DNA of 64,000 nt from Candidatus Bathyarchaeia archaeon (lineage in GTDB: Archaea > Thermoproteota > Bathyarchaeia > 40CM-2-53-6). Made by a program: the position numbers and the translations under genes. The DNA is taken from positions 416,001 through 480,000 of the forward strand of contig JBEKVV010000003.1 of the NCBI GenBank assembly GCA_049513715.1. Direction: 5' to 3'. Under the pieces are notes generated by a model. That model saw nothing but the letters and a program-made list of their open reading frames with translations. It made no database searches and had not been told where the DNA came from. Positions 69 to 12,256 of the stretch are shown here, piece after piece. Every line of letters begins with the position of its first letter. Positions within the stretch are counted from its first letter, which is position 1.

Positions 69-80
69 CACACAAGTAGC

Positions 81-122
81 CCGGTTCAAATTCCAACGGT
101 TGCACCATTAGTCCCACCCGCA
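81..122 (+). repeat. Degenerate tRNA 3'-end remnants (T-arm + acceptor + ACCA, Gly-like; then TCCCACCCGCA)
   Basis: CCGGTTCAAATTCCAACGGTTGCACCA; no D or anticodon arm upstream. Confidence 0.6.
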
Positions 123-198
123 CGCAACTGCCATTTGCAGTGGCTGTCAAGAGCAAAGAGCTTTTCAATATAGTGCAATCAGTAGTGGCGATTCCTCC

Positions 199-828
199 TT
201 GGACGAAATTACGAAGCGAACTCAACCTATCGAATCGCTTTCGGAATTAGTCAAAATTATTTTCGGACTTGCTCTATCGATTGGTGCTATTTCGTTGATC
301 TCGCGACTTCCCACCAAGCCGCTGGGAATATTGGTTGACGTTGCAGAGTTTGGGTTCAGCTTCCTGATCTTGATCTCCGTATGGATGGGGTATACGAACA
401 TAATGTCGGTTCTTCCGATGGAGGATAGCGTTACAGTCATCCTTAACCTTGTGTTGCTTTTTCTTGTCTCGATCGAGCCCTACCTCTTCTACCTGAACAT
501 AACCTTCGACCTCTTATCCCATGAACTGCTTCTGAATTCTGCTTCAATGCTGTACGCCTTAGATATGACTGGACTGATGTTGATTCTCGCATTATTCACA
601 CATCAACTCGCTAGGGAGGAGAGAGGGTTAGTCTCGAAGGAGTCAATGGCTAGGTTCAAGCGGGTTAGGAACACCTTATTCATATCAGCGGGCCTCTTCG
701 CGATCACCATTCTGCCACTATTCTGGACCTTGAAACTCTGGGACCTGCCGATACGATTCTACTTCTGGTTCATTCCACTAGTCCTTTCGTCGGTTAGGCA
801 CATATCGGACCGCGGATTTCAAGAATAA
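199..828 (+). CDS. TMEM175-family (K+ channel-like) membrane protein
   Basis: N-terminal IESLSE..FGLALSIG resembles the RxxxFSD helix; SFLILISVW and LNLVLLFLVS; about 6 TM segments. Confidence 0.7.
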   Translation: MDEITKRTQPIESLSELVKIIFGLALSIGAISLISRLPTKPLGILVDVAEFGFSFLILISVWMGYTNIMSVLPMEDSVTVILNLVLLFLVSIEPYLFYLNITFDLLSHELLLNSASMLYALDMTGLMLILALFTHQLAREERGLVSKESMARFKRVRNTLFISAGLFAITILPLFWTLKLWDLPIRFYFWFIPLVLSSVRHISDRGFQE

Positions 829-950
829 CGTCAACAGCCCAGCATCAACCGGCCTCGTCCGTTTGTGTCTTCTGCTGTTTATTTCACGTATTGGGACGCG
901 GAGGGAGAGTATATTGGATTCTGCCGACGCTGTGATTTTGTGGTAATATC

Positions 951-1397
951 TTGAGTCTTGAAGAGGTAGCGAAATGCAACTTCAATTCTGGTTTCAATTG
1001 CGCGGAATCGGTTCTGTTAGCAGTGAACAGTGAACTTGACGCAACAGGAGCGAGTGATCAGGTGATTCCGAGAATTGCCACAGGTTTTGGGGGCGGGATC
1101 AGCCGGAATGGCGATGTCTGCGGAGCCCTTGTGGGCGGAGCGATGGCAATCAGCCTAGCGTTGGGCCGCGACAAGTCCGATGCCAGCAGGGAACCATGCT
1201 ACTCAGCAGTCGACCAATTCTACAATGATTTCCGAGCAAAATTCGGGTCGTGCAAGTGCCGTGAACTAACGAACCTAAATATGAAAACCCCAGAGGGGGC
1301 CGAGGCGTACAAAGCCGAAATTCACGCGGAAATCTGCAACCCAATCGTCGCGTGGGCCGCTAGGAGAGCTCACGATCTCATCAAAGAGACCTCGTGA
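951..1397 (+). CDS. C_GCAxxG_C_C family putative redox protein
   Basis: FNCAESV, GFGGG, VCGALVGG, CKCREL and a terminal Cys. Confidence 0.85.
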   Translation: MSLEEVAKCNFNSGFNCAESVLLAVNSELDATGASDQVIPRIATGFGGGISRNGDVCGALVGGAMAISLALGRDKSDASREPCYSAVDQFYNDFRAKFGSCKCRELTNLNMKTPEGAEAYKAEIHAEICNPIVAWAARRAHDLIKETS

Positions 1398-1445
1398 ACT
1401 AATTGGAAGCCAGCCTAGGCTTCGTTTCTTGACATGTTTTCGGCG

Positions 1446-1727
1446 CTAAGGCAGCAGCAGACTTGAGAATAGCAGAATCGCAAGACCTAGCGATGCTGCA
1501 AGCATCCAAGCCTTGCTCAGGATTTCTCCCCATCTCTCTGTCATGAATAAGTAAACAATCATTGCGAATGACAAAAGGTCGACAGCCAGGAAGATTGCGA
1601 ATCTAGTTTCACTTACGCTGCTGGTTGCGTCGAGCGTCCATAGAAAAAGCGCGGAGGCTGCTTGAAGCAGGAGCAGCAATGTGACAATCAGCCTATTCCG
1701 ATCCATTTTGGACTCCTCCAAATTCAA
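1446..1727 (-). CDS. Small 3-TM membrane protein, last gene of the Rieske/cytochrome b operon
   Basis: Hydrophobic ORF overlapping the cytochrome b stop. Confidence 0.7.
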   Translation of the reverse strand: MNLEESKMDRNRLIVTLLLLLQAASALFLWTLDATSSVSETRFAIFLAVDLLSFAMIVYLFMTERWGEILSKAWMLAASLGLAILLFSSLLLP

Positions 1728-3171
1728 AGAGAGGAATTCGTCTCTTGACTGAACCGATTCTCAATTCTAGTCTGTATAGAAAGATGAATGTGCCAAGGAA
1801 TACTGCTCCTAACAATGTCGCCGATAAACAGAGAGATGCGAGCGCCTCAAAATTGACTCCGCCAATAACTAATTGAGCTGAATTTCCGAAGAATGCGCTG
1901 ATTGAAACTGAACCTAGAGCAAGTAATCCGACTAGCATGGGCCCCGCCCATACGACAGTTATCGCTTGCGTGGAAGCCTTGTTCGTCGGTAGATGTCCCT
2001 TGATTTGCGAGTTTATGAGTTTGCTCAGGCCTAAAGAGATGAGCGCGATCAGTAATGCAGATCCCCCTAGCACTGTGGCAGCAACTTCTGTAGGGATGAC
2101 TTGGCCTGGTGTGATCAAGCCCCAATATGCAAGCACGAAGACTTCGCCAACAAATATTAGGCCAAGTGCTACAAAGAGAGGGCGGTTTCGGATTTTCCTC
2201 GTTTCGCCTCGGTCAATTACGGGTAGGAGGAATAGCAGTAGGAAGATTATGGTGACAACACTCATCGCGACCGGAAGGCCCGCACCTTCGAACACTGAAA
2301 TCTTCAGCAGCTGATAAATCCACAGAAAGTACCAGTCAGGTTGCGGAATAAACTGGGACGCAAGTTCCGGCGTATATTGTGGGGGTAGATTGAGTGGGAA
2401 GACCACTGAGATGAGAAGCATTATGGCGCCGAAGATCGCTGCCAGCTCTAACAGGTAGAGTGAAACATCAGGGAATATTGGAATTGTTCGACGGGGTTTT
2501 GTTTCGCCGAGGGCTGTTACTGGCTCTGAGATGCCGTGCGTTTCTAGCATGTACATTTTGACGGTCAAGAGAACTAACAGTACTGCAGGTAGGATGACCA
2601 CGTGTAAATCGTAGAAGCGTAGGAGTTGGGTAGCATCACCGCCAGCCCCAATTATTAGAAAACTTAGGAGTGATGAGAGCGGTGCTGGCAAGGCGTCTAT
2701 CATTCCTACGCCTACGTCGGTTGCTGACTTTGAAACCACCGTCCAAGGCAGCAAGTATCCAGTAAAACCAAAGCCCAATGTGACGAAGCCCATCACCATG
2801 CCCACAAACCACATAATCTCTCTAGGTTTCTTGTGGACTGAGACGAAGTACCCGCGCATCATGTGCATGAATGCGAGCATTATCATCGCATATGCTGTGT
2901 ATAGGTGGACGCTTTCCAAGAACCTTCCATAGAAAACGGATTGAAAGATGTATTGAGTTGACGGAAACGCTTCCATTGGGTTGGGAATGTAGTAGAGCAT
3001 CATTATCATCCCCGTGACGCCTTGAATGACGAAAGCGACTACAGTTAGGGCGCCGAGCCAGTAGAGGGGGTTGATGGCGTAACGAGGAACTGGCCTTAGC
3101 AAGGGGTGCGAGAGGCCCAGTCGAGTGTCAATCCATCTGAGCAACCTAGTGGGCTCGCTTTGTTCTTTCAC
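1693..3171 (-). CDS. Cytochrome b of a Rieske/cytb complex (SoxN/QcrB-like)
   Basis: Helix-B His pair (VHLY..MHMMRG), GFTGYLLPW, RFYDLHV, Qo-site PDWY. Confidence 0.92.
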   Translation of the reverse strand: MKEQSEPTRLLRWIDTRLGLSHPLLRPVPRYAINPLYWLGALTVVAFVIQGVTGMIMMLYYIPNPMEAFPSTQYIFQSVFYGRFLESVHLYTAYAMIMLAFMHMMRGYFVSVHKKPREIMWFVGMVMGFVTLGFGFTGYLLPWTVVSKSATDVGVGMIDALPAPLSSLLSFLIIGAGGDATQLLRFYDLHVVILPAVLLVLLTVKMYMLETHGISEPVTALGETKPRRTIPIFPDVSLYLLELAAIFGAIMLLISVVFPLNLPPQYTPELASQFIPQPDWYFLWIYQLLKISVFEGAGLPVAMSVVTIIFLLLFLLPVIDRGETRKIRNRPLFVALGLIFVGEVFVLAYWGLITPGQVIPTEVAATVLGGSALLIALISLGLSKLINSQIKGHLPTNKASTQAITVVWAGPMLVGLLALGSVSISAFFGNSAQLVIGGVNFEALASLCLSATLLGAVFLGTFIFLYRLELRIGSVKRRIPLFEFGGVQNGSE

Positions 3172-3177
3172 AGTTGT

Positions 3178-3819
3178 CTAACTCACAATGTTTCCGCCTT
3201 GAAGGTCCGAGGTGACATCGTTCGACCCGGTGTTGTGCCCGAAAATTGCTGGAGGCGTCATGCCAACCGCAAAGATTTCCCCAGAGTCGCTCAGTTGCAA
3301 TATGACTTGAGGTTGGGGCCGAGGGGAGGGCCCGGAGCGTACGCTAGCGCGGTGCAGAAAATCGAAGACGCTTCCATGGCAACAACAGTAACCCAACGGG
3401 GTGTCGGCTTTGAAGGCTGAATTGCATTGTGGACTGGTTCCGGTGGGTTGGAAGGAGTACACGCAGCCTAGGTGCTGGCACAAGACACTAAAGGCCACGA
3501 TATCTCCATCGGGCCCAACTCCACCTTCCGCCTTCTGCCCTAGCTTCACCAAGATGTTTGGCTCGTTGTCGAGCGGATAGTTGAAGACGACATGTTCATT
3601 CACCTTCAAGTCTCCCATTGACGCGACTTTCACTTTGGGAAATGTCGCTGGTCCGGTTCTGGCTGGGGGGGCCGAATTAGTAATGGCTTTTGTGATGGCC
3701 GCGATTCCACCGATAAGCAGAAGCCCCGATAAAGTGACTGCGAGCTTTAGAAAATTCCGTTTCCTCTCGTTCGGCCGCTTTTCCCTTGGATTGTCACTGG
3801 TGGCTTTCTTCGGGGGCAT
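3178..3819 (-). CDS. Rieske 2Fe-2S protein (SoxL/AioB-like) with Tat-type anchor
   Basis: CQHLGC and CCCHGS boxes; RKRNFLK followed by a TM helix. Confidence 0.92.
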   Translation of the reverse strand: MPPKKATSDNPREKRPNERKRNFLKLAVTLSGLLLIGGIAAITKAITNSAPPARTGPATFPKVKVASMGDLKVNEHVVFNYPLDNEPNILVKLGQKAEGGVGPDGDIVAFSVLCQHLGCVYSFQPTGTSPQCNSAFKADTPLGYCCCHGSVFDFLHRASVRSGPSPRPQPQVILQLSDSGEIFAVGMTPPAIFGHNTGSNDVTSDLQGGNIVS

Positions 3820-3823
3820 TGAA

Positions 3824-4975
3824 TCACCGTTTGGCTTTTGGCCTGGTAATTATCGCTCCAATAACCAATCCTACGATCAGAAGGCCGAAGCCAACCACAC
3901 CCGCTAAGGTAGCGCTAATGCCCGTTGGGGTCGACTGCGCAATTGTGACCGGAGCAGTTGGTGGCATTTGGTCGCTGATCGTTAGATCATACCACTGCGA
4001 CACTGACTTCACGTGCGCTGATTCCCCTAGTTTCCCGTTCCAAACCGCGAAAGCCACATAATAGTTAGAGCCAGTCTTCAGTTGCACTCTGTATTGAGAT
4101 GCGTCGGATACGGTGAAACTTCTAACCATCTCAACGGTCCATGTTTGATTGTTTTCTGAGAAATAGTTGCCTACGTGTATTACGAATGGGTCCGCGTAGG
4201 GGTCCAAGTTTGGGGAATCAGCCCCGAAGCTTCCACCTGTCACAAAGAAGCCGGTCGTGTTCGTGTAATCGCTTTCTGCATATGAGACATTGTTAGGAGG
4301 ATAGAGGGTGGTCCCGGCTGGGTCGGTGTAACCTCCTGGGAAGTCTGGGTCGCGCTGGTCGTTGTCGGTTGGAACTGACTGCCAATGCCAGATGTCGGCT
4401 GCTCCTCCGGTTATGGCGCCGTTCGTTGCTAACTCCATTACAGGTGACTGCTGCCTCTTCGAGGTGTCACCTAGGAACCAGAGCATTGCCACGCGGTCTT
4501 GGTAGTAGTATGTTGAGTTGTAGAACAACTGGTTTGCGGTTGCTGTACTCTCGTCGGTTAGGGGCAGTAGGGTTCCATTGGGTGCAGTGTAAAGCTCACC
4601 TTCCGAGCCGAAGGACGGCCCAACCTTATCATCCCAACGAAACAGCGCGTAAACATTGAACCCGTCATTAGCAGATTTCACAAGAACGTTCTGCGTGCGA
4701 CCTCCTCCTGGCGAAACGGAGGCAGCCAACGGGACGCTTGTCCACTCGATCGCGTTCCAGAATGATTCGTTTCCAGGCGCGTTGTAGTCGGGAGCTCCGT
4801 TCACTCGGTGAGACGTAATCTTCGGGAATGACCCTTGAGCAAACGCTCCCTGCATCGCAACGTTTGGCAGCGCTCCTGCCCAAACAATCATGATAAGAAA
4901 GACGAAGAGAACACGAGGACTTATCCTATTTAGAATCGTTGAAATCTCCTTTGAATTACGCGTTGAAGAATTCAT
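3824..4975 (-). CDS. DOMON/EB_dh-like heme-b protein (CbsA-like), with signal peptide and C-terminal anchor
   Basis: VYALFRWDD, QDRVAMLW, ADIWHW, WTVEMVR, YYVAFAVWNG..ES..KSVS. Confidence 0.8.
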   Translation of the reverse strand: MNSSTRNSKEISTILNRISPRVLFVFLIMIVWAGALPNVAMQGAFAQGSFPKITSHRVNGAPDYNAPGNESFWNAIEWTSVPLAASVSPGGGRTQNVLVKSANDGFNVYALFRWDDKVGPSFGSEGELYTAPNGTLLPLTDESTATANQLFYNSTYYYQDRVAMLWFLGDTSKRQQSPVMELATNGAITGGAADIWHWQSVPTDNDQRDPDFPGGYTDPAGTTLYPPNNVSYAESDYTNTTGFFVTGGSFGADSPNLDPYADPFVIHVGNYFSENNQTWTVEMVRSFTVSDASQYRVQLKTGSNYYVAFAVWNGKLGESAHVKSVSQWYDLTISDQMPPTAPVTIAQSTPTGISATLAGVVGFGLLIVGLVIGAIITRPKAKR

Positions 4976-5233
4976 CGCTCAATGCAAATTTAACGTTTGC
5001 CGGGTCGTTCATGCAAACACACCCGGTCGCGGTTAGGTACGGGTGGGCACGTTGCTAATGGCTATGTAGATGAAATTAATGACCGAGATTTGGTCACCTC
5101 GTAACACGTAAGTTGAGCTACCACTACTGCAGCCCGAGATCGTCTGCAGGAAAAACGTCGAACCTTCCTTTGCATGGGAATCTTGTTAAGCTGCCGTTCC
5201 TATTCAAAGCCGTCGTTGTGAGTTTGGAAGCGT

Positions 5234-5779
5234 ATGCCGCTCTGGAACCTTGTGCTCAGCGGTTACCCGGCCTCAGGCAAGACTGTTCTGGCTCGTAGGC
5301 TTGTTGCTGAGCAACCGAACTTTCTACGCTTAAGTGTCGACGAAATGCGCGACATGTTCTTCGGCTCCAAGGAACCTTCCTCAGAAGAGGAGTTCATTTA
5401 CACTGGTTTTGCGTCTTTGCGGGATTTGGCGTTGAGGATGGGGCACAACGTTGTGCTAGATTGCACTGCCCCAAGAAACAGCACTAGAAATTTTCTGCTG
5501 AACACAAAAGTTCAGGGAGTCATCAGGCTTGTCGTGTTATTTGTTGTTGACAAAACGGAATTGGAGGGACGCAACCGAGAGCGAGGACTAGAGGGCGCAG
5601 TAAGCGCATGGGACAAAACTTGGGAAACCCCAACGCGAGACATTCCAGTCTTCAAATTCAGAAACAACTCCTTAACCGAATTTGAAACCAGCTACTACGT
5701 ACTGACAGACCTGCTCAGAAGCAAAGTTCACCCCTACAGGCGCAGGTTCCTTGGTAACATGTTTCCCCAAATAGGATAG
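5234..5779 (+). CDS. P-loop kinase (AAA_33-like)
   Basis: GYPASGKT, LSVDEMR, VVLDCT. Confidence 0.8.
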   Translation: MPLWNLVLSGYPASGKTVLARRLVAEQPNFLRLSVDEMRDMFFGSKEPSSEEEFIYTGFASLRDLALRMGHNVVLDCTAPRNSTRNFLLNTKVQGVIRLVVLFVVDKTELEGRNRERGLEGAVSAWDKTWETPTRDIPVFKFRNNSLTEFETSYYVLTDLLRSKVHPYRRRFLGNMFPQIG

Positions 5780-5835
5780 AATCGATTTCCTCAAGCTAGG
5801 AACTTAATACATTCTTTAGCCACGGTTAGGTTGGC

Positions 5836-5988
5836 GCCGGGGTAGCCTAGCTAGGTAAGGCGACAGAGCCCCGAGAACCGTAGACGTGTGATCGGGACGT
5901 TGAACCTCGAGATCACCGCGCTAGAAATGGGCCAAGACAGCTGTTGGTCCTCTGGGCCTCGTGGGTTCAAATCCCACCCCCGGCGCCA
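5836..5988 (+). tRNA. tRNA-Ser(CGA) with two introns (5867-5904 at 30/31; 5912-5938 at 37/38), encoded CCA
   Basis: Acceptor GCCGGGG/CCCCGGC, D-arm GCCT..AGGC, spliced anticodon arm ACAGC-CTCGAGA-GCTGT, long variable arm, T-arm GTGGG-TTCAAAT-CCCAC, discriminator G. Confidence 0.88.
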
Positions 5989-6103
5989 ATTTACCGGTCG
6001 TTTTGTGTATGTGGGTCTAATGGTGCGCACCACCACAACTGACACAGAATTTCCCATTGAATGGCTTCACTTTGCGTGGCAATTGCAATTGCCAGGGGGC
6101 TTC

Positions 6104-6532
6104 TCAAGTTGTCGTTTGGGTCTGTTTCGGTTTCCACGTCACCGCTAGTATGCCTCCTACGAGGCCTAAGACTAAGCCCACGCCTAGCCCGCCCATAGCG
6201 CCGCCGAATATGCTAAGCGCTGAGAAGACTATGATCAACATGCCCCATGTTGAATGTTCCTGGGGCTTGCTGTTCAGCATCACTGCACTGATGATTACTA
6301 TGACCCCGAAGACTATTCCCAGGATCCCCAATAGCCCGAAACCCAGCCATCCCATCATTCCATAACTAGGAACGCTGTAGCCCATCATACCGCCCCAGCC
6401 GCGGTAGCCGCCCATCATTCCCCCAAACCAAAATGCGCCCATCATGGATGTCATTCCTCCGCCAAGGAGGATGAATAAGCCACCAATCAGTGAAAGTAGG
6501 TAAGCAGCCGTAGGCTTCTCTGTTAGTGTCAT
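6104..6532 (-). CDS. Membrane protein with Met/Gly-rich loop
   Basis: About 4 TM segments; GGMMGGYRGWGGMMGY..GMMG. Confidence 0.85.
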   Translation of the reverse strand: MTLTEKPTAAYLLSLIGGLFILLGGGMTSMMGAFWFGGMMGGYRGWGGMMGYSVPSYGMMGWLGFGLLGILGIVFGVIVIISAVMLNSKPQEHSTWGMLIIVFSALSIFGGAMGGLGVGLVLGLVGGILAVTWKPKQTQTTT

Positions 6533-6724
6533 CTTCTAGATTTCAACTCCATGTGCTTAGTTTGATTCGACTTCCTGTAGGAACACTGCTCACTGATAGT
6601 CACCCCAATCTCTTTAACATGTAACTAATGATTGTGGCCCATCAATTTCGTTCTGCGGAATCATGTATCCCAACACGCCGTTGCCAACCGACAAACCAAA
6701 CCACTCCCATTAAGCTGTGAGTTC

Positions 6725-6753
6725 ACACTGAAACACAGTGTGTTTCACCGTGT
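6725..6753. promoter_or_regulatory. Palindromic putative operator between divergent island genes
   Basis: TGAAACAC-AGT-GTGTTTCA (6729-6747), extendable with ACAC/GTGT. Confidence 0.5.
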
Positions 6754-6817
6754 ACACCCATCTTAAGTGCGCTTCTTGAGTGGCATCACCAGACTCGAAC
6801 CGTTGATGTGAATATGC

Positions 6818-7567
6818 ATGGTTGACTGCGGGCGTTGCCACCGGAAATTCGACTCGTACTCTGGCCTACTCCAACACTATAAGGTAAAACATCCAAACGC
6901 GACGAACCTTAAGGACCTAGAAAGACAAGTCAGGACCGAGCAAGATACACGAGAACTAGTTTCAGCGAGTCTGCATTCGCATGGGCCCTCAAGAGCGAAG
7001 TTGATCGCATTCTCACTAATCGTGCTTATCGCGGTCAGCGTCACAGCTTACGTTGCGTTCGCACCAAAGGAAGTATTCACAACGACAGTCAGCGCGAAAG
7101 GGGTCGCTCCAGACTTCTCCTTACCGGATGTTAACGGCGGAACATTCACCCTTTCTGACTACAGGGGAAAGTCGAACGTCCTCTTGTTCTTCAACGAGGG
7201 TCTAAGTTGCGCTCCTTGCCTGCAGCAGATGCAGGGGTTGGACCAGCTTAATGCGGAATTTGGCAGAATGAATGTCGTGGTTGTTGATGTAACCGCTGAC
7301 CCTCTGCAGTTGCTGACGGATTGGACTAGGTCAAGTGGGCCCCAGTATGCCAAGGTTCTTTCCGACCAAAACCTCGCCGTTAGCAAAATGTACGGAATGC
7401 TGGGCCCAGACGTGAGCATGATGCCGTACTCCAAGCCTGGACACACGTTCGTTCTGGTAAACACATCGGGTGTCATAGTCTGGAGACAAGACTACGGGCC
7501 TAGCAACATGTTCGTTCCAAACAACCAAATCGTTGCCCTTGTCTCGAAGGCGCTCGGAGCCAGCTGA
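6818..7567 (+). CDS. C2H2 zinc finger + TM + AhpC/TSA-like redoxin domain
   Basis: CGRC..HYKVKH; APDFSLPDVNG, CAPCLQQM. Confidence 0.85.
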   Translation: MVDCGRCHRKFDSYSGLLQHYKVKHPNATNLKDLERQVRTEQDTRELVSASLHSHGPSRAKLIAFSLIVLIAVSVTAYVAFAPKEVFTTTVSAKGVAPDFSLPDVNGGTFTLSDYRGKSNVLLFFNEGLSCAPCLQQMQGLDQLNAEFGRMNVVVVDVTADPLQLLTDWTRSSGPQYAKVLSDQNLAVSKMYGMLGPDVSMMPYSKPGHTFVLVNTSGVIVWRQDYGPSNMFVPNNQIVALVSKALGAS

Positions 7568-7570
7568 GTA

Positions 7571-7837
7571 GTGTCAAAAGTCATTTTGCTGAGTAGCGTG
7601 GGTTGCACGCCCTGCCTGCGTGTTAAGCGGTACCTTAACGAGTTCCACGCGAAGAACCCTCAGATCGAAGTCGAGGAAATTGAATTTTCTTCTCAAGTTG
7701 GATCAAAACTTGCAGTGGAAAATGGAGTCCTTTACCCGCCCGCGGTCTTCCTTGAAGGCAAACTGATTGCCAAAGGAAAGATACACGCAGAGACGTTGAT
7801 CACGACCATCCAAGAGGCCGAAATGGTGAATGTTTGA
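7571..7837 (+). CDS. Thioredoxin/glutaredoxin-like protein
   Basis: CTPC, GVLYPPAVF. Confidence 0.8.
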   Translation: MSKVILLSSVGCTPCLRVKRYLNEFHAKNPQIEVEEIEFSSQVGSKLAVENGVLYPPAVFLEGKLIAKGKIHAETLITTIQEAEMVNV

Positions 7838-8718
7838 TGTCACTGCTTCTTCTCGCATACCTGATAATTGCATTTGTTGCAGGCGTGATTGCGCTTGCAA
7901 TGCCATGCTGCTTTAGCGTACTTCTCCCATCGTACTTCGCCCAGAGCTTTAGGCAGAAAACGCGGCTAATCGGAATGACTGTCATTTTCTCCTTAGGCAT
8001 CGCCACGATAATGCTTCCGCTCACCCTAGGCGTGGTAGCAGTTGCAGGAACGGTTACTTCGAATCACAGCTTGGTCTTCGTGGCCGGAGGGTTCCTGATG
8101 ATTGTGTTCGGGTTTCTCACTCTATGGGGGCAGGGTATGCTGCCGCAATTGAATTTGCCCGTCAGCCTGAAACGCACCGACGCATTTTCAGTTTACACCC
8201 TCGGAATCTTCTCAGGAGCAGCGACCTCGTGCTGCGCCCCTGTTCTAGCTGGAGTCCTCGTATTGTCCGCTTTATCAGCTGGAACCTTTGAGGGATTGCT
8301 AATTGGGTTCACGTACGTACTTGGGATGGTCTTTCCACTCTTCGCAATCGCCCTCGCATGGGACAGATATGTGCCTAACGGAGAAAATCCGTTGAAGGGG
8401 CGACTTCTACACTTCAATACATTCGGCCGCGAAGTTGCGATACACTCATCAAAGCTCATTTCCGGCCTGATGTTCGTCTTGATGGGAATCGTCACCGTTG
8501 CATTGGGCCTACTGGGGAGAATGATTCCGGCACCCGGCGCTGCGCAAATAGGGGCCATGCAGGCCCAGCTCGCGTATGTTCTGACGGCTTACTTCGTGAA
8601 TTCCTCTGGACTAGAGTTAGTTGGAGTTCTTGGTGTGGCGATAGTCATCATTGGCGTCTTCGCTCTGAAAAATCACATCAGAAAACTACTGGAACCCGCT
8701 AGAATCGAGGGGGACTAA
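7834..8718 (+). CDS. ccdA: CcdA/DsbD-family transmembrane thiol-disulfide transporter
   Basis: AFVAG..MPCC..LLPSY and SCCAPVLAGVL. Confidence 0.8.
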   Translation: MMSLLLLAYLIIAFVAGVIALAMPCCFSVLLPSYFAQSFRQKTRLIGMTVIFSLGIATIMLPLTLGVVAVAGTVTSNHSLVFVAGGFLMIVFGFLTLWGQGMLPQLNLPVSLKRTDAFSVYTLGIFSGAATSCCAPVLAGVLVLSALSAGTFEGLLIGFTYVLGMVFPLFAIALAWDRYVPNGENPLKGRLLHFNTFGREVAIHSSKLISGLMFVLMGIVTVALGLLGRMIPAPGAAQIGAMQAQLAYVLTAYFVNSSGLELVGVLGVAIVIIGVFALKNHIRKLLEPARIEGD

Positions 8719-8722
8719 AGCA

Positions 8723-8956
8723 TTGAAATCAACCCCAGTGACAGAACAAAGACCGATTGGGCGGGCAGTCTTATCACTATCCAATTGTGAAGGCGACGCA
8801 CCAGTTCAAATACTTCAGCGTACGCTGAAGAAGACACCTGGCATAAGGCATGTAGATCTCAATTATGCTGCTAACACAATAACTGTCGACTATGATCTAA
8901 CCAAAATCACATTCGAAGAGGTAAGGGCAGTCATCAAACAGCCCCTTCTAGCTTGA
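8723..8956 (+). CDS. HMA-fold small protein lacking the full CxxC
   Basis: LKKTPGIRHVDLNYAANTITVDYD pattern; single Cys. Confidence 0.7.
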   Translation: MKSTPVTEQRPIGRAVLSLSNCEGDAPVQILQRTLKKTPGIRHVDLNYAANTITVDYDLTKITFEEVRAVIKQPLLA

Positions 8957-8983
8957 GTCTTTCGAAACGCGGGAGGAAGTAGA

Positions 8984-11065
8984 ATGGCCAAGGACCCGAT
9001 TTGTGGCATGTTTGTGGATGAGAAGACCGCGACCATAACCCGCACGATTCGGGGAACAAAATGGTACTTCTGCAGCGAAACCTGCGCCATGACATTCGAG
9101 AAACCAGAGGTCGAAATCAGACGTCTCAAGCTCTTGGTGATAATTGGCATCGCGCTCACAGTACCAACAGGTTTGTTCACATACGTTATGCTTCTTCCAT
9201 CCAACATCAACAATTATCTGCTCTTCATTTTGGAAACGCCAATACAGTTCATCGTGGGCTGGCGCTTCTACAGGGGCGCATACGACGCTCTAAGAAACCG
9301 AATGGGTAACATGGATCTTCTAATTGCCATTGGTACTACTGCCGCTTGGGCATACAGTACAGTAGTCACTTTTCTTCCGTCAGTCTTCCCCACGAGCGGA
9401 GCATACTTCGATACAGCTGCAGTGATCATCACCCTGGTCCTACTCGGGAACATGTTGGAGCATATCAGTAAGGGAAGAGCTTCCGAGGCAGTTCGCAAAC
9501 TCCTAGATCTACAGCCCAGGATGGCACACGTGATCCGCAATGGGGCTGAAGAGGAAGTTCCAGTAGAGTCGGTCAAAGTAGGCGATATTCTAGTTATCCG
9601 CCCCGGGGAAAGGATACCGGTTGACGGAGTGGTGACTGAAGGCAACTCTGCTGTTGACCAATCCGCCATCACCGGAGAAAGTATCCCCGTTGAAAAAACT
9701 GCTGGCGATGAAGTAATCGGAGCAACAATCAACACATTCGGTCTTCTCAACGTTCGAGCATCGAAGGTCGGAGCAGATACAGTACTATCAAAGATCGTTC
9801 AACTCGTCGAAGAAGCCCAGATGGCGCATGCGCCGATTCAACGCCTCGCCGACCAGGTTTCAACATACTTCGTGCCTGCAGTTATCGTAATCGCCACAGG
9901 GTCGGCGCTAGGTTGGTATTTCTTCGGTGGATTGGCGCTCAACTTTGCTTTATTGGCGTTTGTCTCAGTAATCGTCATCGCATGCCCGTGTGCACTTGGC
10001 ATCGCTACTCCAGCCGCAATTCTTGTCGGAACAGCCAAAGGCGCTCAGAATGGGATTCTCATCAAAGGCGGTGAGTATCTAGAGACAACCCATAAGATAC
10101 GGACAATTGTCTTTGACAAGACCGGCACTCTGACCAAAGGCAAACCGTCGGTAACAGATGTCATAGTCAGTGGAAAGCACACGGAACAAGAAGTACTTCA
10201 GCTGGCCGCCTCAGCCGAGAAAGGCTCAGAACATCCTCTCGGCCGAGCAGTCGTAGAAGCTGCTAAGAAAAAGGGCATAAGCATACCTGACGCGACCTCA
10301 TTCAAAGCCGTACCAGGCGCGGGCGTAGTAGCAGAGCACAATGGGAGAACCGTATTGCTGGGAAACCGAAAGCTGATGGCAAAATATGACATGAACCTCG
10401 CGCCAGTCGAAGCCGACATATCTGCGCTTGAGGAAGAGGGTAAAACGGTCATGGTTCTATCCGACGGCAAGGAACTCCTCGGTGTCATCGGCCTCGCAGA
10501 CACCCTCAAAGATGACGCTTCAGACACAGTCCGAGAATTGCAGCGAATGAAGATTGAAGTCGTAATGTTGACAGGCGACAACATCCGAACGGCCAAAACC
10601 GTTGCTAGCAAATTGGGCATAGACAGGGTTGTGGCAGACGTTCTGCCAGAGCAGAAGGAGAAGATTATCAGAGACTTGCAAAAGGAAGGTAAGGTTGTGG
10701 GCATGGTTGGAGACGGAATCAACGATGCGCCAGCTCTTGCAGCGTCCGACATTGGAATTGCCATCGGAAGCGGAACAGATGTCGCGGTCGAAACAGGCGG
10801 CATTGTTCTGATCAGGAACAACCTACGAGATGTGGTGATCGCCATCAAACTCAGTAAGGCAACTGTCAGCAAGATCAAGCAGAACCTGTTCTGGGCATTC
10901 TGCTACAACGTTGCACTCATCCCCATCGCTGCAGGTGCACTCGTGCCATTCCTCGGACCTGGTGTGTACAATTTCCTTCCATTCCTAGCTGCCGGAGCGA
11001 TGGCTTCAAGTTCAGTTACTGTCGTAAGCAACTCCCTTCTGCTGAACCGGTTCAAACCACGGTGA
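8984..11065 (+). CDS. copA: Cu+-translocating P1B-ATPase with N-terminal YHS/TRASH domain
   Basis: KDPICGM..YFCS..C, TGES, CPC, DKTGT, SEHP, GDGIND, YN, MASSS. Confidence 0.95.
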
Positions 11066-11086
11066 AGATCTGGAGGTGAGATCGAA

Positions 11087-11230
11087 TTGGTTAAGGATCC
11101 AATTTGCGGAATGAAGGTTGACGAGAAGAAAGCGGCGGGTTCAAGCTCGTATTCAAGCAAAACCTACTACTTCTGCTCGCCATTCTGCAAGAACGAGTTC
11201 GACAAGAACCCAGCGAAATATGCCACCTAA
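11087..11230 (+). CDS. YHS/TRASH metallochaperone (CopM-like), 47 aa, absent from ORF track
   Basis: TTG start after GGAGGTGA; MVKDPICGMKVDEKKAAGSSSYSSKTYYFCSPFCKNEFDKNPAKYAT. Confidence 0.9.
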   Translation: MVKDPICGMKVDEKKAAGSSSYSSKTYYFCSPFCKNEFDKNPAKYAT

Positions 11231-11305
11231 AGTTCATTCAGGCATCCCTCACATTGAGGGGGGAATGATGGATGTCTACGGGCAAGCGTCAACGAGTGAG
11301 ATATT

Positions 11306-11334
11306 GGTGGGTTCAAATCCCACCGTCCCCACGA
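11306..11334 (+). repeat. Foreign tRNA 3'-end remnant
   Basis: GGTGGG-TTCAAAT-CCCAC-CGTCCCC-ACGA; no recognisable D or anticodon arm. Confidence 0.7.
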
Positions 11335-11358
11335 AGTTGGTTATACGTACCGGTAAAT

Positions 11359-11387
11359 TGGGGTCAAATTCCCACCCCCGGCGCCAA
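11359..11387 (+). repeat. Duplicated tRNA-Ser 3' end (attR/TSD-like)
   Basis: TGGGGTCAAATTCCCACCCCCGGCGCCAA. Confidence 0.85.
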
Positions 11388-11473
11388 CTCCCTTAAGTTC
11401 TTCGTTCTCCGGCTTTGACCTTCCGGCCAAATTTATTTTAGTAGCTCCTCACTACGATGTTAAGTGGTTACTG

Positions 11474-11749
11474 ATGCCCAACGAAGTTCATTGCGCACAT
11501 ATCCTCGTTAAAACCCAGACAGAGGCACAAGCTGCCATGGAGAGACTGAACAAGAAAGATAAGTTCGCGAACATTGCCAGAGAGATCTCAATCTGCCCTT
11601 CTGCAAAGCGCGGCGGAGACCTCGGCACTTTTACCAGAGGAAAAATGGTCAAAGAATTCGAACAGGCGGCGTTCGTCCTTCAGAAGGGACAGATCTCACC
11701 CATCGTGAAAACAAAATTCGGATACCACATTATAAAGAGACTAGAATAG
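11474..11749 (+). CDS. ppiC: Parvulin-type peptidyl-prolyl isomerase
   Basis: HILVK, SICPSAKRGGDLG, MVKEFE, KTKFGYHII. Confidence 0.95.
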   Translation: MPNEVHCAHILVKTQTEAQAAMERLNKKDKFANIAREISICPSAKRGGDLGTFTRGKMVKEFEQAAFVLQKGQISPIVKTKFGYHIIKRLE

Positions 11750-11881
11750 ACCAGACGAAAGAGGACACCGGGATACGTGCCTAAGCGGCTCAGGTCAGAA
11801 TAGTTACACACGCATCGTTGAAGACTGACCTCTCAAGGAAAAGGCATTTAAACGGTAGTCGAATATCCGAATTCGATCTAA

Positions 11882-12055
11882 ATGGGCAGTACGAAATCGT
11901 ACCTTGCAATTCTAATGGGAATAATAATTATCGTAGCAGACCTATGGTGGACTTGGACAAGCTATACGTATCTGCCCTGGCTAGCTGCTGGTGTAATAAT
12001 ACTCGTTGCCAGCGTGATCTGGATCTATATTGACTACGACCTGATGAAGAAGTAA
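11882..12055 (+). CDS. 57-aa two-TM membrane protein, absent from ORF track
   Basis: MGSTKSYLAILMGIIIIVADLWWTW..LPWLAAGVIILVASVIWIYIDYDLMKK; TTTAAA about 30 nt upstream. Confidence 0.7.
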   Translation: MGSTKSYLAILMGIIIIVADLWWTWTSYTYLPWLAAGVIILVASVIWIYIDYDLMKK

Positions 12056-12144
12056 CCTGCACCTAACCATGGGATGGGAAACAGCCCTCTCGACTAAGCG
12101 TAGAAGAACACCGTCAGCCCGAAAAAAACGGCACAAGAGCTTCC

Positions 12145-12201
12145 GCGGGTTCAAATCCAGCCCGCGACGCCAAAATCCCCCGCGAATTCCACCCCGGCTC
12201 A
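12145..12201 (+). repeat. Stacked degenerate tRNA 3'-end remnants
   Basis: GCGGG-TTCAAAT-CCAGC-CCGCGAC-GCCA, then AATTCCACCCCGGC (eroded tRNA-Ser end). Confidence 0.6.
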
Positions 12202-12256
12202 TTGCAGTAAGCAGCAATTCAATAATAGACACCAATCACTATCTCACGAGCTATCA

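Follow-up and report, generated by a model that had tools for sequence, protein, structure and literature searches.

tRNA 3'-end fragments as probable attachment joints of stacked gene modules in a peat archaeon, with a XerA-like integrase as candidate recombinase

Why does a stretch of archaeal chromosome carry pieces of tRNA 3' ends between its gene blocks? The 64,000-nt window analysed here (contig JBEKVV010000003.1, positions 416,001 to 480,000, of a Candidatus Bathyarchaeia archaeon) holds four fragments that resemble a T-arm and acceptor stem, at 81-107, 11306-11334, 11359-11387 and 12145-12172 in window coordinates, all on the + strand and hereafter called F1 to F4. A first-pass annotation had read them correctly to the letter, and their excess over chance is real. 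The window contains GGTTCRAAT 7 times where 1.37 would be expected, a count reached by 0 of 100 shuffles, and the pattern GGTTC[AG]AA[TC]-N10-16-CCA has 91 matches genome-wide, 27 within tRNA calls and 64 orphans, compared with totals of 5, 7, 9, 14 and 8 in five shuffled genomes. At a probability of roughly 0.6, we interpret the fragments as attachment (att) joints of tyrosine-recombinase elements whose target in tRNA genes is the end from T-arm to CCA, left in stacked modules that accrete at a repeated 51-bp site, which we call R. The genome analysed is G000, with contigs C1-C11, and C3 holds the window (C3:416077 is window 77); 22 congeners (with handles such as G002 and G019) were compared, all of them different species of the genus. 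TFIIB and eIF-1A genes and the intron-bearing tRNAs mark G000 as archaeal. Copies of R and of a second repeat, K, were counted at nhmmer E<0.01 unless stated. Population data are contigs of peat and wetland metagenome runs, a level at which rare variants are dropped.

The copper and thiol-redox genes that follow a tRNA-Ser gene (block 1; Table 1) lie between two direct copies of the tRNA 3' end: 5972-5989 and 11370-11387 are 18/18 identical by blastn and lie 5,398 bp apart, and the tRNA is intact through its CCA. The tRNA-Ser orthologues of G014 and G013 are empty targets, running without interruption straight into ACTCGCTTCA or ACTCTCTCGG (ACTC...), and the flank beyond the insertion (11387-11396, ACTCCCTTAA) has 8 of 10 letters as after the uninterrupted G014 gene. 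The cargo is far closer to that of congeners than its surroundings are: 7136-11255 is 85% identical to G014 and 84% to G018, and 8463-11055 is 93% identical to G013, whereas identity falls to 68-70% in the core genes on either flank (cytochrome b cluster, AAA_33 kinase). In these three genomes the copper/redox cluster is sited elsewhere, not beside tRNA-Ser, and neither a tRNA fragment nor an R copy adjoins it. A Pfam scan of the seven cargo ORFs (open reading frames) of 5989-11386 returned no PF00589 or other integrase. Given the cargo's higher identity and different location, block 1 is therefore a module without an integrase that was acquired recently, and a genuine insertion at the tRNA-Ser 3' end, much as the first-pass annotation had suggested. 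It retains both att sites and holds no recombination or transfer genes, as does a cis-mobilizable element (CIME). At a G018 locus (L024, G018:C2:1887001-1895000), an insert of ~50 nt separates the T-loop of the tRNA-Ser orthologue from the acceptor strand, and a second Ser tail lies 2.2 kb downstream of that gene; the insert is either an intron in the T-arm or else a small integrated element.

The target is a real tRNA gene, as had been proposed, scoring 40.4 bits (E 1.1e-5) against RF00005 in Rfam's E-value mode. It has a long variable arm, discriminator G and a 74-nt insertion in the anticodon region, because of which ARAGORN at default settings and Rfam gathering runs missed it; both returned nothing for the window. 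We call it Ser type because its final 32 nt are identical to those of an intron-less gene at C2:77367-77448, tRNA-Ser(GCT) according to ARAGORN. When introns are allowed, ARAGORN names it tRNA-Pro(TGG), a call that is probably wrong. The G003 orthologue has an intron helix with compensatory changes (CCCGA/TCGGG against CCCTCA/TGAGGG).

The 33-nt stretch that leads from the left into F3 matches dozens of places in the genome, and 11340-11381 proved to belong to a 49-copy family, R, that the first-pass annotation had missed. In R, a 19-bp arm leads into a T-arm-like GGGG-N7-CCCC inverted repeat that is followed by a tail; a representative copy, at C7:9593-9643, has an arm with TATGTACCGGTAAATT, GGGG, a variable 7-nt loop, CCCC and the tail. 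A profile from 37 copies listed 67 matches in the genome, 49 of them at E<0.01, with cores whose identity averages 0.79 over all pairs. On 8 of the 10 R-bearing contigs all copies point the same way, and C3 and C6 each have one reversed copy. Spacings range from 0.5 to 24 kb (many 0.5-4 kb, others 5-24 kb), and numerous copies lie at contig ends. These co-oriented arrays elsewhere in the genome bear out the idea of tandem stacking. An 18-nt R-arm pattern (≤2 mismatches) occurs 39 times in this genome and is present in 17 of the 22 congeners; outside the genus it was found in two genomes only, and a reversed control pattern gave 0 matches. Literature searches, in a literature that is not searchable by sequence, found no description of the 51-bp site.

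Each copy reads from the arm through an element-type left half of the core (GGGGTC) into a tail that varies with its context. Of 44 copies, 31 share one 15-nt tail (CATCTCTGA type, or x-type), 8 end in a Leu-type and 2 in a Ser-type tRNA tail, and 3 in others. The heptamer AAATCCC, at the loop/stem border, is common to the tRNA-Leu tail, the tRNA-Ser tail and R. Between R sites lie modules of 1-20 genes with ORFs in both orientations, encoding arginase, peptidases, permeases, ferritin, ABC transporters, oxidoreductases, a lipase and aldehyde:ferredoxin oxidoreductase; 181 such ORFs were scanned and, save for one integrase on C5, none is an integrase, transposase or replication gene.

The inverted repeat of R mimics a T-arm and its arm contains a TATA-like TTATATG, features that would suit an RNA-level signal such as a promoter with leader or a tRNA-like processing site. 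We consider that role very improbable: just 18 of 27 downstream ORFs are co-oriented with R, as are 6 of 14 upstream ORFs on C5, five extended copies show no covariation, no Rfam family matches at gathering thresholds, and the hairpin loop varies over a stem of just 4 bp. Folded as single-stranded DNA (ssDNA), eight R copies gave z-scores of -2.0 to +1.0 relative to shuffles, and the sole recurring pairing joins the GGGG stem to one of the CCCC runs downstream (4-6 bp). The independence of R from ORF orientation and the lack of a special ssDNA fold both fit a double-stranded DNA site. Split-tRNA halves or another structured RNA were rejected on the same grounds: no covariation in the five copies, no Rfam family at gathering thresholds and no special ssDNA fold.

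Two further observations concern the surroundings of R. A segment of 170-440 nt, 74-96% identical, recurs at C5:159634-160077, C1:823636-823932, C7:40974-41144, C6:8850-9179 and C5:210941-211371; it adjoins R at three of the five places, with no R near it at C1 or C7. An R copy also lies 140-250 nt downstream of an uninterrupted tRNA-Leu-type gene at C1:124746-124933 and at L058 (G012:C14), which may be a minimal or emptied island.

The first-pass annotation had pictured a system without a recombinase of its own and suggested a search for a tyrosine recombinase. That search was productive. PF00589 matches five places in the genome, and the strongest match (98 bits) is a 319-aa ORF at C5:218585-219544 (-), the genome's one member of the relevant integrase family. 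It is XerA-like: its best model is NF040815 at 181.6 bits (under the cut-off of 220), its nearest solved relative is XerA 5hxy, and alignment to 5hxy shows the catalytic tyrosine context and the HxxR box to be kept. Scores against the integron integrase models are low (TIGR02249, 42.5 bits against a cut-off of 265; NF011946, 24.2 against 435), so that by score it is not an IntI, the IntI-specific extra domain being judged through model scores only.

The setting of this gene links it to R. Read on the minus strand, the C5 island starts with a multi-intron class-II tRNA with discriminator A (Leu type), ending in ...CCCCTCCCCCGCACCA and followed directly by TTTTACCGGTACACATAA, an inverted R arm (16/18). 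A 182-aa ORF and the integrase come next, then 14 R copies across 60 kb; the last (160080-160033) has an authentic Leu tail, beyond which lie ordinary metabolic genes. In this, the one island seen whole, the integrase-bearing element thus stands next to the tRNA and heads the largest array. Junctions of a tRNA tail with an inverted arm occur at two places only in the genome, C5:220114 and the window tRNA-Ser with ATTTACCGGTCG. A search of the 22 congeners found homologues of the 182-aa/integrase operon in 5, with integrases of 62-66% amino acid identity, and in 5 of 5 full-length loci, G000 included, the operon lies directly behind a class-II tRNA tail and a WTTTACYRGTA arm. The tail is of the Leu type in G000, G008 and G003:C1 and of the Ser type in G002 and G003:C2; in G003 and G002 the order is tRNA-Ser, then ATTTACTAGTAAC or ATTTACTGGTATA, then the operon. 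CIMEs are further defined by descent, through deletion, from an integrase-bearing element and by mobilisation once they have accreted with one. The integrase elements at tRNA-Ser and the arm remnant behind the window tRNA may point to such a descent for the window module; accretion with the integrase element is seen on C5, and mobilisation did not show in the contigs of the 4 metagenome runs compared.

An attachment site inside the integrase gene, which would split the gene on integration as in Sulfolobus spindle-shaped virus (SSV)-type elements, does not describe this system: the 319-aa ORF is unsplit, and its full-length homologues are open frames of 317-342 aa beside a tRNA. Insertion into a palindrome with an ACCGGT duplication was likewise dropped as a model, in view of the integrase-side attL with its full inverted arm. 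By tblastn, no fragments of the integrase or its 182-aa partner occur elsewhere in the genome. At the integrase elements of G002, G003 and G008, neither a second tRNA tail nor an R marking an attR was seen within the DNA examined.

We propose that an incoming element supplies a replacement tRNA tail on its left, the displaced tail staying on the right, as F3 would have done. The XerA-like integrase would bind the inverted repeat of R as a simple double-stranded core site and exchange strands in or next to AAATCCC; we infer this point because the heptamer is shared by the tRNA-Leu tail, the tRNA-Ser tail and R. It would thereby join R to class-II tRNA tails or to another R, and repeated joining would stack integrase-less tail-cargo-arm modules into co-oriented arrays. 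Integration of a circle carrying arm, core and tail would give just such an array, its outermost site retaining the tRNA's own tail. The families represented by F1, F2 and F4 would have been brought together by similar stacking.

In three comparisons between genomes, homology breaks at R. Among 58 R-to-R blocks taken from G000 and 25 congener loci, 8 pairs share ≥300 nt. One pair, G012 (L057) and G019 (L060), is 97.6% identical over 988 nt through the R arm and hairpin and unrelated beyond; the left border of the shared piece in G019 is a further, degenerate R. Metagenome contig L154 matches G000 C7 at 98% through arm and hairpin, diverges inside the tail and is unrelated further on, and contig L095, unrelated to G000 C3 on the left, is 97% identical from the first base of R on. 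In addition, R bounds a GDSL-lipase module at either end both in G000 C7 and in G013, where the module is 88% identical and has other neighbours. The claim that the fragments are recombination scars at boundaries of gene content, with breakpoints at a repeated site, is supported by these comparisons. The metagenomes held 86 R sites in 80 loci, of which 55 had no 90% match to G000, 14 were collinear with it and the remainder matched on one side only (11 left, 6 right).

Several results weigh against this interpretation. In the integrase, an Asp stands at the conserved His of the XerA LGH motif. Its family was found in just 5 of the 22 congeners, and R arrays are present where no integrase was found, including in G013 and G014, both listed as 100% complete. 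No empty site was found for the 60-kb C5 island; at seven congener loci the orthologues of the Pyr_redox_2 gene in the island flank have neither a tRNA match nor a Leu tail nearby. The left arm of the window insertion, only ~11 nt long, could belong to a K unit instead. Of the 17 one-sided metagenome sites, 7 break ≤60 nt from R, on 5 distinct contigs, and rearrangement unrelated to R is also expected between different species. Blocks on C10 match congeners as pieces of 1-3 kb at 87-95%, shorter than the R-to-R blocks, and a 3.1-kb C10 piece has no R beside it in the three congeners inspected. Whole R-to-R blocks are therefore often not the units of transfer. The window locus itself looks fixed: all 24 listed peat and wetland runs contain ≥0.99 of its words, and in the 4 runs compared block depth equals flank depth and contigs bridge both junctions. 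The first-pass annotation had called for circular junctions to be sought; at this locus the contigs of these 4 runs show neither a circle of the excised module nor an empty site nor a rearranged joint, in contig-level data where rare excised forms could not show. A single joint from 6027 to 11348 (run X10, one contig, side 24, 28 letters between) was considered as an excision product and found to be a genomic K-plus-R composite instead.

Such fixity suits an account in which the arrays are fossil scars: complete elements would long ago have integrated one after another at tRNA-Leu and tRNA-Ser and since lost their integrase modules, leaving R unused and the modules immobile. The locus fixed in the 4 runs and present in all 24, the several R-array genomes without a detected integrase and a whole 3.6-kb R-bounded module that G004 and G019 share at just ~66% identity, as in vertical inheritance, all agree with it, and similar debris is seen in tycheposon islands (bioRxiv 10.1101/2020.12.28.424599). 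Yet none of the ~45 modules holds a fragment of the integrase or its partner, one 15-nt tail ends 31 of 44 copies, and the 51-bp site is recognisable across species with core genes 68-70% identical; the three breakpoints at R fall between sequences 97-98% identical, so the exchanges are recent. We regard fossil scars as unlikely overall, while giving them real weight. The absence of integrase debris despite the shared tail argues against independent decay of autonomous elements and, with R recognisable across species, suggests that most modules never had an integrase.

A bolder extension of the accretion mechanism is that R and the single XerA-like integrase form a working archaeal cassette exchange that arose independently of integrons, which would insert, excise and reshuffle modules in trans at R sites and at tRNA-Leu or tRNA-Ser tails, the modules being traded between species of the genus. 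Each module would carry one R, copied from the T-arm and tail of class-II tRNAs, and one enzyme would serve the whole flexible gene pool. This extension is tentative, and we put it distinctly below even odds.

The remaining fragments fit accretion through other att-like families. F1 is a copy of K, whose layout is GGTTCAAATT, ~10 nt, GCACCA and a CTAGACCCACACACAC-type arm; what had been taken for an eroded tRNA end at 112-122 is the arm of this copy, and a reverse-strand K at 5998-6051 had escaped notice. Of 115 listed matches to K, 95 have E<0.01; they occur on all contigs and in both orientations, with GACCCACACACAC-type arms and frequently as inverted or tandem pairs, which form GTGTGTG…CACACAC palindromes. 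The genuine tRNA at C3:86163-86290 ends like K, and 27 of the 64 orphan tRNA-like fragments adjoin a K copy. The T-stems of K copies are unpaired, which makes the conserved letters look less like RNA structure than like sites bound by a protein.

The abundance of K raises the question of whether R and K are self-spreading short repeats of tRNA origin, akin to miniature inverted-repeat transposable elements (MITEs), repetitive extragenic palindromes (REPs) or short interspersed nuclear elements (SINEs), that land between genes and promote homologous recombination. The 95 K copies on all contigs, in both orientations and in inverted or tandem pairs, the orphans beside them and the want of an obvious second end in R would agree with this. 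R, however, is clustered rather than dispersed, carries authentic tRNA tails where islands end, keeps a uniform orientation on 8 of 10 contigs and shares its arm with the attL of the integrase element; it is one conserved 51-bp block, with no second end of the kind that terminal repeats give MITEs or REPs. A Y1/RAYT transposase is absent, the TnpB genes lie elsewhere, and we judge such repeats an improbable explanation. A REP/RAYT or IS200-type origin was rejected outright, PF01797 (the Y1 transposase) being absent from the genome; the genome's eight TnpB-type matches do not lie beside R arrays.

F2 is the remnant of a third tRNA ('tRNA-Z'), which has its own att family with arm TTAGTCCCAC; it matches C3:166055, C3:181344 and C2:373502 at 25 of 26 nt. 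The composite of Z remnant and R recurs at C5:206.5k (88%, 68 nt) and C1:892.3k (84%, 74 nt) and, reduced, upstream of the C5:160.1k R. F2 was therefore inherited within the right end of one lineage and is not a fresh stamp. In its own right, C3:166055-181369 is a candidate integrated element of 15 kb, with 26-nt tRNA-Z tail repeats at its ends and, beside the tRNA, an ORF of 480 aa that PF00589 matches weakly (19.8 bits).

F4, whose acceptor had been thought foreign, shares 24 of 29 aligned positions with the Ser tail. Its left flank resembles the arm of the Ser-type att remnants at C2:50.9-56.7 kb (26 of 32 at 56.7 kb); neither score was reached by any of 500 shuffles. It is an eroded Ser-type att of another family. 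Downstream of tRNA-Ser(GCT), at C2:50.9-77.4 kb, three co-oriented Ser-tail remnants carry an arm TTCATCCAGCC…GCACA… and so form a separate att family on the same tRNA tail. F1, F2 and F4 represent three att-like families besides R, at least four in all. The further eroded tail proposed at 12185-12198 is plausible and unproven: it is 3 edits from the Ser tail, and such matches arise ~2 times per 528 kb of shuffled sequence. The direct-repeat likeness of 71-141 and 12132-12208, said to share flanks, is not significant, as 27 of 500 shuffles reach the score of 61-150 against 12121-12215.

Could cassettes lacking any recombinase nonetheless have hopped among tRNA genes through the T-arm, keeping acceptor stems as stamps, as first proposed? 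The fusion of the R arm to varied tails (31 x-type, 8 Leu, 2 Ser and 3 other among the 44 copies), the integrase-less window module and the remnants of other tRNAs just inside module ends speak for it. The differing acceptor stems do not, however, record the travels of one cassette type: F1 is a copy from a 95-copy dispersed family, F2 with the R copy of F3 is a recurring composite duplicated as a unit, and F4 is a decayed Ser tail. The real targets seen for R are Leu- and Ser-type tails only, and a dedicated integrase with a matching inverted arm exists. The proposal is accordingly even harder to credit than self-spreading repeats.

Block 2 (the parvulin and a 57-aa membrane protein), which had also been taken for a mobile cassette, gave no evidence of mobility: the parvulin gene keeps its DoxD/Rieske neighbourhood, at 12-13 kb, in G002:C25 and G003:C22. 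An 81% paralogue of the 57-aa gene stands at C3:94872-95047, 436 nt beyond another tRNA gene and with K-like motifs on its flanks; the gene may be a small hitch-hiker. At the left end of the window, the TMEM175/LtrA-like membrane protein encoded at 199-828 has homologues on R-bearing contigs in G012, G013, G016 and G019, from <1 kb (G012) up to ~11 kb (G013) from R, so this end may also be island cargo. A weak match to the C/D-box small RNA sR44 at 5254-5300 (-), inside the AAA_33 kinase gene (18.5 bits, gathering 45, E=1), is probably due to chance.

Table 1. Features of the window (window coordinates) and R copies per contig
Feature	Position or number	Strand	Basis
F1, K repeat copy: T-loop-like GGTTCAAATT, ...GCACCA, TTAGTCCCAC... 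arm	77..128	+	nhmmer E 3.5e-5, C3:416077-416128
Intron-bearing class-II tRNA, Ser type, CCA encoded; integration target, attL side	5836..5988	+	Rfam RF00005
Left copy of 18-nt direct repeat (tRNA tail)	5972..5989	+	blastn
Inner-arm remnant ATTTACCGGTCG, inverted copy of R arm	5989..6000	+	resemblance to congener arms
Reverse-strand K repeat, left end of insertion	5998..6051	-	nhmmer E 3.2e-8, C3:422051-421998
DUF6114 membrane protein	6104-6532	-	Pfam
AhpC/TSA	6818-7567		Pfam
Thioredoxin/glutaredoxin-like protein	7571-7837		Pfam
DsbD_TM-like protein	7834-8718		Pfam
HMA chaperone	8723-8956		Pfam
P-type ATPase with YHS domain	8984-11065		Pfam
47-aa YHS protein	11087-11230		Pfam
F2, 3'-end remnant of third tRNA ('tRNA-Z', tail ...CCCACCGGCCCCACCA)	11306..11334	+	25/26 nt
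R copy: arm TTATACGTACCGGTAAATT, GGGG-N7-CCC inverted repeat, fused to Ser tail	11340..11381	+	nhmmer E 1.4e-10
F3, attR core; 5' part element-type GGGGTCAAAT, 3' 18 nt = tRNA-Ser tail	11359..11387	+	blastn
Parvulin, block 2	11474-11749	+	Pfam Rotamase 1.2e-24
57-aa membrane protein, block 2	11882-12055	+	ORF
F4, eroded Ser-type att remnant, other att family; arm GCACAAGAG...	12130..12172	+	alignment against shuffles
Possible second, badly eroded Ser tail	12185..12198	+	3 edits from Ser tail
R copies on C5	14	all -	
R copies on C7	7	all +	
R copies on C4	6	all +	
R copies on C1	5	all +	
R copies on C10	4	all +	
R copies on C9	2	all -	
R copies on C6	5	one reversed	
R copies on C3	4	one reversed	
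R copies on C2 and C11	1 each	n/a	

The building of islands at tRNA genes is familiar, and CIME accretion and tycheposon islands are the closest known systems. At streptococcal tRNA genes (PMC7563491), as here, att-bearing modules without recombination genes stand in tandem with an integrase element at tRNA 3' ends, and, as in C5, it is the decayed elements that stand at the greatest distance from the target gene. The archaeon differs in having no conjugation genes, in its dozens of 0.5-8 kb modules, where CIMEs come as one or two, in the non-target tail that most of its sites carry and in having no integrase debris left. Because of the non-target tails and the missing debris, these modules look built without an integrase rather than decayed. 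Prochlorococcus tycheposon islands (bioRxiv 10.1101/2020.12.28.424599) are similarly tRNA-adjacent, with partial tRNAs between elements and scattered through the islands, newcomers that push older elements inward and niche cargo for metals and nutrients. Tycheposons, however, mostly encode an integrase and replication functions of their own, and broken integrase genes persist in their islands. The present system has one integrase to a genome, and what recurs is a defined 51-bp site whose arm derives from the element.

The likeness to an integron drawn by the first-pass annotation holds for the layout and fails for the enzyme scores and the attC fold, with ORFs in both orientations and site spacings partly within and partly beyond those of integrons. 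Integrons, including those of archaea (bioRxiv 10.1101/2022.02.06.479319), are recognised by the extra domain of IntI, attC sites that fold as ssDNA hairpins, short and mostly co-oriented ORFs and sites <4 kb apart. In both systems one Xer-related recombinase heads a co-oriented array of sites, with accessory-gene modules between the sites that are shared between species. In contrast to integrons, the present system lacks an IntI signature by score, R is short, of a double-strand type and without an attC-like fold, the modules hold 1-20 genes in both orientations, and entry is at a tRNA tail, not at attI. Integrated elements of Thaumarchaeota (PMC6563490), which include cryptic integrated elements (CIEs) and tandem arrays, likewise use intron-less and intron-bearing tRNA genes, reuse sites and have short att sequences (median 17 bp); they are defined by carrying an integrase, and a multi-copy arm-plus-core site is not described in the consulted part of that source. 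On the scale seen here, island building is unusually modular and integron-like.

What the arrays mean for these organisms depends on whether R is active. If it is, peat archaea would assemble and trade accessory genes, among them those for metal export, transporters, peptidases and redox enzymes, by a compact system of one enzyme and one site. Such a system would do an integron's job with other parts, a Xer-like enzyme and a mimic of a tRNA tail in place of IntI and attC, and would offer a testable mechanism for the growth of genomic islands in an uncultured archaeal lineage; the 51-bp site and its integrase would then be a candidate genetic tool. If the arrays are scars only, R would still supply exact module boundaries for annotating islands. 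Under either reading, the intron-rich tRNA genes that serve as targets are missed by default tRNA finders.

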